Positions 61,771 through 61,940 of a stretch of DNA of 64,000 nt are shown piece by piece. The DNA comes from Octopus sinensis (lineage: Eukaryota): the NCBI RefSeq assembly GCF_006345805.1, contig NC_043004.1, forward strand, positions 74,648,001-74,712,000. Reading direction: 5' to 3'. The notes beneath the pieces were generated by a model. That model searched no databases, was not told the origin of the DNA, and saw only the letters and a list, made by a program, of their open reading frames with translations. A program made the translations under genes and the position numbers. Numbering within the stretch: the first letter of the stretch is position 1; each line of letters begins with the position of its first letter.

Positions 61771-61940
61771 CAGTGCAGTCTTGCTATTGGAATTACTGTG
61801 GTGGTCACTGGTATAATCCATATACTCAGAGGTGTTGTGGAACAACGATAATCCCCTGGTGGAGAGCACATTGTTGTCGTGGATGGTTGCATGGGTGGCC
61901 TTGGTGGAATAGGCATTGGCATTGGTATCTCGTATGTTGA
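61771..61940 (+). CDS. Peptide gene B exon 2: secreted Trp/His/Cys-rich galaxin-like peptide (72-aa precursor)
   Basis: TTTTCTTACTTTACAG acceptor in phase 1 gives (A)VQSCYWNYCGGHWYNPYTQRCCGTTIIPWWRAHCCRGWLHGWPWWNRHWHWYLVC*; 3' UTR homologous to gene A; AATAAA at 62256. Confidence 0.8.

Follow-up and report, generated by a model that had tools for sequence, protein, structure and literature searches.

A tryptophan-rich, galaxin-derived peptide gene in Octopus sinensis and its candidate role in host defence

Introduction

The question raised by this locus was whether a short frame extremely rich in tryptophan (Trp) is a real gene and, if so, what its product might do. The frame lies in a 64,000-nucleotide (nt) stretch of the Octopus sinensis genome (RefSeq assembly GCF_006345805.1, contig NC_043004.1, positions 74,648,001 to 74,712,000), hereafter the window, and is referred to as gene B. 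A sequence-only reading of the window had described it as an exon for a cationic disulfide peptide. Gene B is a spliced two-exon gene encoding a 72-residue precursor. Its mature peptide is best read as a secreted host-defence (antimicrobial) peptide, a one-repeat galaxin derivative with an enlarged segment rich in Trp, histidine (His) and arginine (Arg), and we give this reading about an even chance from its sequence features and from analogy. Such a peptide would act at surfaces, in animals from which few antimicrobial peptides are known. All positions below are those of the window on the forward (+) strand unless stated otherwise.

Results

Composition of exon 2

Exon 2 of gene B occupied positions 61,771-61,940, with position 61,771 directly after a polypyrimidine tract and a CAG acceptor and a TGA stop codon at 61,938-61,940. 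The 52 residues downstream of VQS comprised 10 Trp, 7 cysteine (Cys), 5 Tyr, 5 His, 5 Gly and 4 Arg with no Asp, Glu or Lys, so that the earlier coordinates and residue counts were exact on recount. Trp accounted for 19.2% and aromatic residues for 29% of the mature peptide, which had a calculated mass of approximately 6.7 kDa. The calculated net charge was +3.4 at pH 8.1, +4.0 at pH 7.4 and +7.8 at pH 5.5; the earlier term "cationic" holds to a moderate degree.

With the TGG frequency of the window, the binomial probability of at least 10 TGG in 52 codons was 1.9 × 10−9. Shuffling the bases of the exon 200,000 times never gave ten Trp (maximum 9, once), and among 489 stop-free frames of at least 52 residues in the window, no frame but that of gene B exceeded 5 Trp per 52 residues. 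A chance frame was rejected on these three counts, as the sequence-only reading had expected from ten in-frame TGG codons.

Gene structure and splicing

A scan of the window for hydrophobic ATG-to-donor exons returned 24 candidates for exon 1. The best-scoring one (coding part at positions 52,678-52,726; 16 codons plus 1 base, phase 1) was followed by a GTAAGA donor, encoded a hydrophobic signal peptide and fitted the N-terminus of the O. vulgaris protein P0001. Between the exons lies a GT-AG intron of 9,044 nt (52,727-61,770) which contains microsatellites and repeat relics.

Read evidence was taken from 24 listed runs, 20 of which contained the stretch or part of it; eight were compared, with junctions matched by eye. 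None of the 24 is on record as RNA, and the evidence for transcription is the splice junction itself. The last letters of exon 1 were joined to exon 2, with the intron absent, in contigs of seven of the eight runs (7 studies, 5 organism labels), exon 2 being without difference, and four of the seven spliced contigs extended more than 30 letters on the exon 1 side. The contig of the eighth run (X18) read from exon 2 into the intron, as DNA would. The spliced contigs used the first of two tandem CAG acceptors, and, as ACAG closes exon 1 as well as the intron, the contig match begins at 61,767. The two exon-1 variants of B were each seen in spliced contigs, from different runs. A retrocopy as the origin of the spliced contigs was rejected as there were only two genomic matches and the intron precedes both.

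The Octopus vulgaris protein P0001, annotated as "hypothetical predicted protein", equals the gene B precursor at 71 of 72 residues, with a Tyr to His change near the C-terminus. The sequence-only reading had staked itself on splicing of the exon and on an undisrupted frame in orthologues, and both were found. Gene B as a pseudogene or an unspliced exon was rejected by the spliced contigs and the intact orthologue. Among 165 proteins retrieved, P0001 had the highest Trp fraction (13.9%; next P0056, 7.4%) and was the second shortest. Run X18 differed from gene B by Arg30 to Lys and His32 to Tyr (61,864 and 61,869, with the codon of Val as position 0), in one contig at a depth of 5.5.

The stop codon and the 3' untranslated region (UTR) span 61,938-62,275, with AATAAA signals at 62,256-62,261 and 62,269-62,274. 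Contigs of four runs ended at 62,246-62,275, and the 3' UTR showed 74-76% identity to the UTRs of its paralogues. Upstream, a weak candidate core promoter (52,613-52,647) consists of a degenerate box at 52,613-52,620, which we take to be TATA-like, and a TCAGTT motif at 52,642-52,647, presumably initiator-like. Paralogues C, D, C' and D' carry TATAAATA at the equivalent position. If collinear, two contigs would start at 52,646 and 52,648 and one at 52,620, although contigs cannot prove a start.

Signal peptide and mature peptide

The signal region had a hydrophobic core (best 8-residue mean hydropathy 3.69) which was conserved across the paralogue cluster described below. It ends in (A)VQS (61,771-61,781), and an xQS end was kept in all eight cluster genes while the first mature residues were unrelated. 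Since this end is common to all eight, cleavage after the Ser of VQS is the conserved reading, and the peptide is predicted to be secreted. Cleavage at QSC|Y was disfavoured by the same conserved end, and the earlier alternative of seven or six Cys in the mature peptide leans to seven.

Mature residues 1-32 (61,782-61,877) hold an extra Cys1 and a single galaxin-like repeat (Cys6, Cys18-Cys19, Cys31-Cys32) with predicted beta-hairpins, as placed by alignments and AlphaFold2. Residues 33-52 (61,878-61,937) form a 19-residue segment with 6 Trp, 3 His and 2 Arg which contains WPWW, followed by the terminal Cys52; a Cys32-Cys52 loop is predicted.

Galaxin-like layout and descent of gene B

The galaxin repeat has about 30 residues and two di-Cys motifs (PMC2726143), and galaxin-like proteins show di-Cys motifs 10-15 residues apart with one Cys before and one after (10.1101/2025.02.06.636789). 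The layout of B (Cys6, Cys18-19, Cys31-32, Cys52) fitted this spacing with its flanking single Cys, and the last spacing of 19 was longer than typical. Against the Pfam profile Galaxin_repeat (PF24748; gathering cut-off 28 bits), B scored 15.9 bits, below the cut-off. Four of the six paralogues scanned passed (D 38.0, D' 37.5, C 35.3 and C' 34.6), with A (18) and A' (21) below. A tandem array of approximately 30-residue repeats was absent from B, which holds one repeat only and is therefore galaxin-derived rather than a canonical galaxin.

Aligned to D, B showed a single internal gap of 87 nt (29 residues), the length of one galaxin repeat. Both have an IPWW turn, and the 3' ends of their introns were identical at 116 of 148 bases, with A and C aligning over less than 40. 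The alignments show that B descends from a D-type paralogue and has lost about 87 nt, equal to one repeat of 29 residues. A tree grouped B with D at 91/90 on a branch that was not starred, the whole tree having one starred branch. The last inter-cysteine segment had the 19 residues given above in B and 12 in D and P0056. Peculiar to B were the lost repeat, the enlarged last segment, the loss of acidic residues and the seventh Cys at mature position 1. The earlier interpretation held for a real, spliced and probably secreted disulfide peptide rich in Trp, Arg and His but missed the galaxin-like cluster family to which it belongs.

Predicted structure and disulfides

As a truncated derivative of the di-cysteine proteins of the cluster, B would have its scaffold and likely disulfide ladder fixed. 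The AlphaFold2 model, made from a 16-row alignment, had a mean predicted local distance difference test (pLDDT) of 72.7 and a predicted template modelling (pTM) score of 0.49. Strands paired at residues 4-6/9-11, 16-19/22-25 and 29-32/35-38, and pLDDT was 88/88/80 over residues 1-30, 67 over 31-40 and below 50 over 43-52. In the galaxin/calcarin model, short hairpins are linked by a bond from the first Cys of a pair to the second Cys of the preceding hairpin, with a single Cys at both ends (10.1101/2025.02.06.636789). The predicted strand pairs of B agree with this model, which for B would give bonds Cys6-Cys18, Cys19-Cys31 and Cys32-Cys52, leaving Cys1 over. By analogy, such a ladder would hold three beta-hairpins and close the 19-residue Trp loop. 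Cys1, probably unpaired, could serve to join two chains or to anchor the peptide.

The three nearest predicted structures were galaxin clusters, with TM scores of 0.40-0.44, under the bar of the search. Among solved structures, there was no sequence match and no Foldseek match at E ≤ 0.001, and the best VIA-align hit (granulin, Z 2.2) was meaningless.

The paralogue cluster

Exon 1 of B had nine genome matches, all on C8 at 74.17-74.81 Mb (a 640-kb cluster), eight of them with a second exon. These eight complete two-exon genes combine a near-constant signal exon with a divergent mature exon. They stand in two blocks, A'-B'-C'-D' and A-B-C-D, with identical gene order and a distance of 430-480 kb. 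The blocks could have arisen by a segmental duplication or represent two haplotypes placed in tandem by the assembly; along their length, they differed by 0.6% to 6% in non-coding sequence. The ninth copy of exon 1 (L035/L052; G000:C8:74217402) was frameshifted, partial and without a second exon. It lies at the end of an apparent, incomplete tandem copy of the sequence upstream of B' and is a pseudo-exon or an assembly error.

All cluster peptides fitted Cys-(CysCys)n-Cys, where n is 3 in A, 4 in C and D, and 2 in B. The paralogues had even Cys counts (8 or 10), Cys1 being peculiar to B. B was the most cationic of the eight peptides at pH 7.4, and B and C were the only types without an acidic residue. 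Gene A also lies in the window (7,573-8,754; exon 1 at 7,573-7,621, exon 2 at 8,543-8,754) and encodes a 66-residue mature peptide with 8 Cys, three di-Cys motifs and a tail of His and aromatic residues. P0002, annotated as "galaxin-like", was identical to C over the mature part, and the O. bimaculoides proteins P0005, P0003 and P0056 grouped with A, C and D, respectively. No B-type protein of O. bimaculoides was found in word-indexed searches and one full profile search, which covered proteins and not the genome. Seven proteins from metagenomes (P0004, P0006, P0010, P0011 and P0013-P0015; one with a bacterial label, another from a collection of protists) had di-Cys repeats strikingly close to the central repeat of C.

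Selection in the cluster

Sister copies were compared over the ungapped mature regions of the four pairs, leaving out the first 7 mature codons of A, which lie beside an insertion. Pooled, there were 39.5 nonsynonymous changes over 640 sites and 1.5 synonymous changes over 146 (proportions per site pN 0.062 and pS 0.010; Fisher p = 0.014, binomial p = 0.010). With the 7 codons of A and three signal codons added, the counts were 46.5 and 2.5 (p = 0.004). No Cys was gained or lost between sister copies. By pair, nonsynonymous and synonymous changes were 20 and 0 in A (59 codons, the strongest in the cluster), 14.5 and 1.5 in C, 5 and 0 in D, and 0 and 0 in B. Compared with non-coding flanks, the nonsynonymous rate was far higher in A (p = 4 × 10−12), slightly higher in D (p = 0.04) and not significantly different in C (p = 0.21). 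B and B' had identical mature exons; with only 0.6-0.9% divergence in their flanks, this identity carries no information. Whichever origin the blocks have, diversifying or balancing selection with the cysteine frame kept constant is demonstrated at the level of the cluster, though not for B in particular. An excess of nonsynonymous change on a fixed frame is typical of host-microbe effectors.

Other galaxin-like frames and repeats

A second cluster at G000:C8:38.33-38.54 Mb (L005, L007-L012 and L032) contained longer galaxin-like frames of 100-195 residues. Several of these end in PWW or PFW and then a His-rich tail, so Trp/His ends are a wider trait of the galaxins of this genome. At G000:C1:38.317 Mb (L003), a galaxin-like frame of 458 residues had an N-terminal Trp/Pro/His/Met repeat region followed by about 27 di-Cys motifs.

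The intron of gene B contained a perfect 47-bp inverted repeat (60,856-60,902 and 61,129-61,175), also present in the B' copy and possibly the relic of a small DNA transposon. A 1.3-kb element occurred twice in the window (44,198-45,491 and 62,495-63,792) with a 174-residue frame at 62,742-63,266 on the reverse (−) strand, which we take to resemble a mariner-type transposase. A 0.9-kb element, also present twice (48,340-49,247 and 56,017-56,924), presumably resembles a fragment of a reverse transcriptase.

Discussion

Host defence is the best reading of the B peptide because squid galaxin repeats inhibit bacteria. Repeat peptides of EsGal1 and EsGal2 were active at 50-300 µM, and squid galaxin genes are expressed in epithelia of symbiotic organs (PMC12773714). 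Galaxin was also among the genes modulated in mussel gill upon Vibrio infection (PMC7772429). Trp/Arg-rich peptides such as indolicidin, which contains WPWW, are antimicrobial and act at membranes or inside cells (PMC6017362). The sequence-only reading had listed antimicrobial, venom, metal-binding and structural roles without choosing; by likeness to the squid galaxins and the Trp/Arg peptides, antimicrobial is now the best single guess from that list.

Under this reading, Arg, with His at acid pH, would draw the peptide to anionic microbial envelopes, and the Trp-rich loop and the PWWR turn may enter the membrane interface. With ten Trp, binding would rely less on charge, as would suit the salt of seawater. 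The disulfide scaffold is expected to resist proteases, and Cys1 may dimerise or tether the peptide.

Several points weigh against host defence. At the pH of seawater, B has a net charge of just +3.4, and its paralogue A has no net charge. The selection signal came mostly from A/A' (20 vs. 0) and C/C' (14.5 vs. 1.5), with B/B' identical and C not significant against its flanks (p = 0.21), and fast change is typical of venom and reproductive proteins too. The substitutions in B itself can be read either way (two nonsynonymous and no synonymous in X18, from one contig at a depth of 5.5, and one residue in P0001). The repeat peptides from squid acted only at high concentrations, with a weak effect in the case of EsGal2R4 (PMC12773714), and the literature places most galaxins among the matrix proteins of skeletons or shells (PMC2726143).

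A more specific form of the host-defence reading is tentative. The C8 cluster might be a dedicated, fast-diversifying octopus antimicrobial family derived from a miniaturised galaxin matrix repeat, with B as its extreme member, carrying an indolicidin-like Trp loop and dimerising through the new N-terminal Cys.

Among the alternatives, a structural role survives best but is unlikely. B would then be secreted as an aromatic and His-rich unit from which cuticle, mucus, egg envelope or stalk is built, either cross-linked via Cys1, His or Trp/Tyr or condensing as pH rises. Coral galaxins (PMC2726143) and sponge calcarins (10.1101/2025.02.06.636789) are matrix proteins. Other galaxin-like frames of the genome also have Trp/His-rich ends, and the charge of B falls from +7.8 to +3.4 between pH 5.5 and 8.1 through its His residues. 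In one run the spliced contig had a depth of 370, compared with 3-10 in the other six, which is compatible with a bulk gland product, although depth is a poor measure. However, the reduction to one repeat, the lack of acidic residues and the nonsynonymous excess of the cluster would be unexpected for a framework protein, and octopuses have little mineralised skeleton.

It is quite unlikely that B recognises or binds rather than kills, that is, that its aromatic surface stacks on chitin, beta-glucan or peptidoglycan and/or its His residues bind Zn or Cu, and that it agglutinates, opsonises or starves microbes. The aromatic content of 29% would suit such a role. The model of paralogue C resembled the carbohydrate-binding region of a fungal glucanase (TM 0.50, under the tool's bar), and repeats of a similar kind are found in proteins of bacteria and protists for which signal sequences are predicted. 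However, the corresponding domain (PF10645) was not matched by B in the Pfam scan (E up to 10) and none of its seven genome matches lay in the cluster, so the link was not supported.

A reproductive peptide of seminal fluid, oviducal gland or gamete surface, diversifying under sexual selection, is improbable. Squid galaxins were top genes of a gland of the female reproductive system, but those galaxins were interpreted as antimicrobial (PMC12773714). Fast nonsynonymous divergence in a tandem cluster would also be expected of such a peptide. Least probable is a venom or salivary peptide acting on prey: B is small, Cys-rich, probably secreted, multi-copy and from a fast-evolving cluster, as venom peptides are, but no solved toxin fold matched at a meaningful score, a single small gland hardly explains spliced contigs in 7 studies unless each of these had sampled it, and nothing in the analysis favours venom.

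Searches for papers on the B peptides by motif and accession returned none; all 15 matches were to one 6-letter term, in papers unrelated by title. No description of the B peptide or its cluster was found in the literature covered, with most subscription papers outside that scope. The term "galaxin" and the peptide motifs were absent from one supplement each of PMC10138644 (skin mucus), PMC7693380 (salivary gland) and PMC10142993 (ink), whose databases may lack the peptide. According to PMC7551771, neither homology search nor immune challenge had turned up an antimicrobial peptide in cephalopods as of 2020, and the 2025 squid paper (PMC12773714) knew of two octopus galaxins. The present genome has at least eight short galaxin-like genes clustered together, and longer ones in another cluster.

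The squid work tested only artificial fragments of larger proteins (PMC12773714). B is a natural single-repeat product small enough to be synthesised whole, and whether galaxin repeats are host-defence effectors is therefore directly testable with it. B would also lend itself readily to a first structure of a fold for which no solved example was found. If the more specific reading of the C8 cluster is true, the cluster would represent a native antimicrobial family in a class where homology searches reported none, and a new protease-stable scaffold without a solved structure. If B is structural instead, it would be an unusual Trp/His biomaterial peptide.

Comparison with known systems

B shares the C-x-Y-N-P-x-CC spacing with IGFL (PF14653; E = 0.0043 over residues 8-46). 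Its score of 17.5 bits against a gathering cut-off of 25 is best read as a common di-Cys motif and not as membership.

With Trp/Arg-rich antimicrobial peptides (indolicidin, tritrpticin, puroindoline peptides and lactoferricin), B has in common high Trp and Arg, a net positive charge and the motifs WPWW and PWW (PMC6017362). Whereas those peptides are linear with 13 residues or represent pieces of unrelated precursors, B has 52 residues, 7 Cys, a predicted scaffold of three disulfides and many His; the likeness is one of composition only, without homology.

With galaxins (PF24748, coral galaxin and the sponge calcarins), B shares a signal peptide, di-Cys motifs about 11 residues apart with flanking Cys and a predicted chain of short beta-hairpins, and is homologous to them by way of C, C', D and D', the paralogues above the Pfam cut-off. 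The calcarins have 10-23 di-Cys motifs and coral galaxin about 300 residues, in contrast to the 2 motifs and 52 residues of B with 19% Trp, no acidic residue and an odd Cys count.

The galaxins EsGal1-10 of the squid Euprymna scolopes, compared here by description, are likewise cephalopod, multi-gene and cationic with di-Cys repeats, and peptides of repeat size derived from them inhibit bacteria (PMC12773714). They are multi-repeat proteins from which active repeats would need to be excised, whereas B is encoded as one repeat with a Trp loop.
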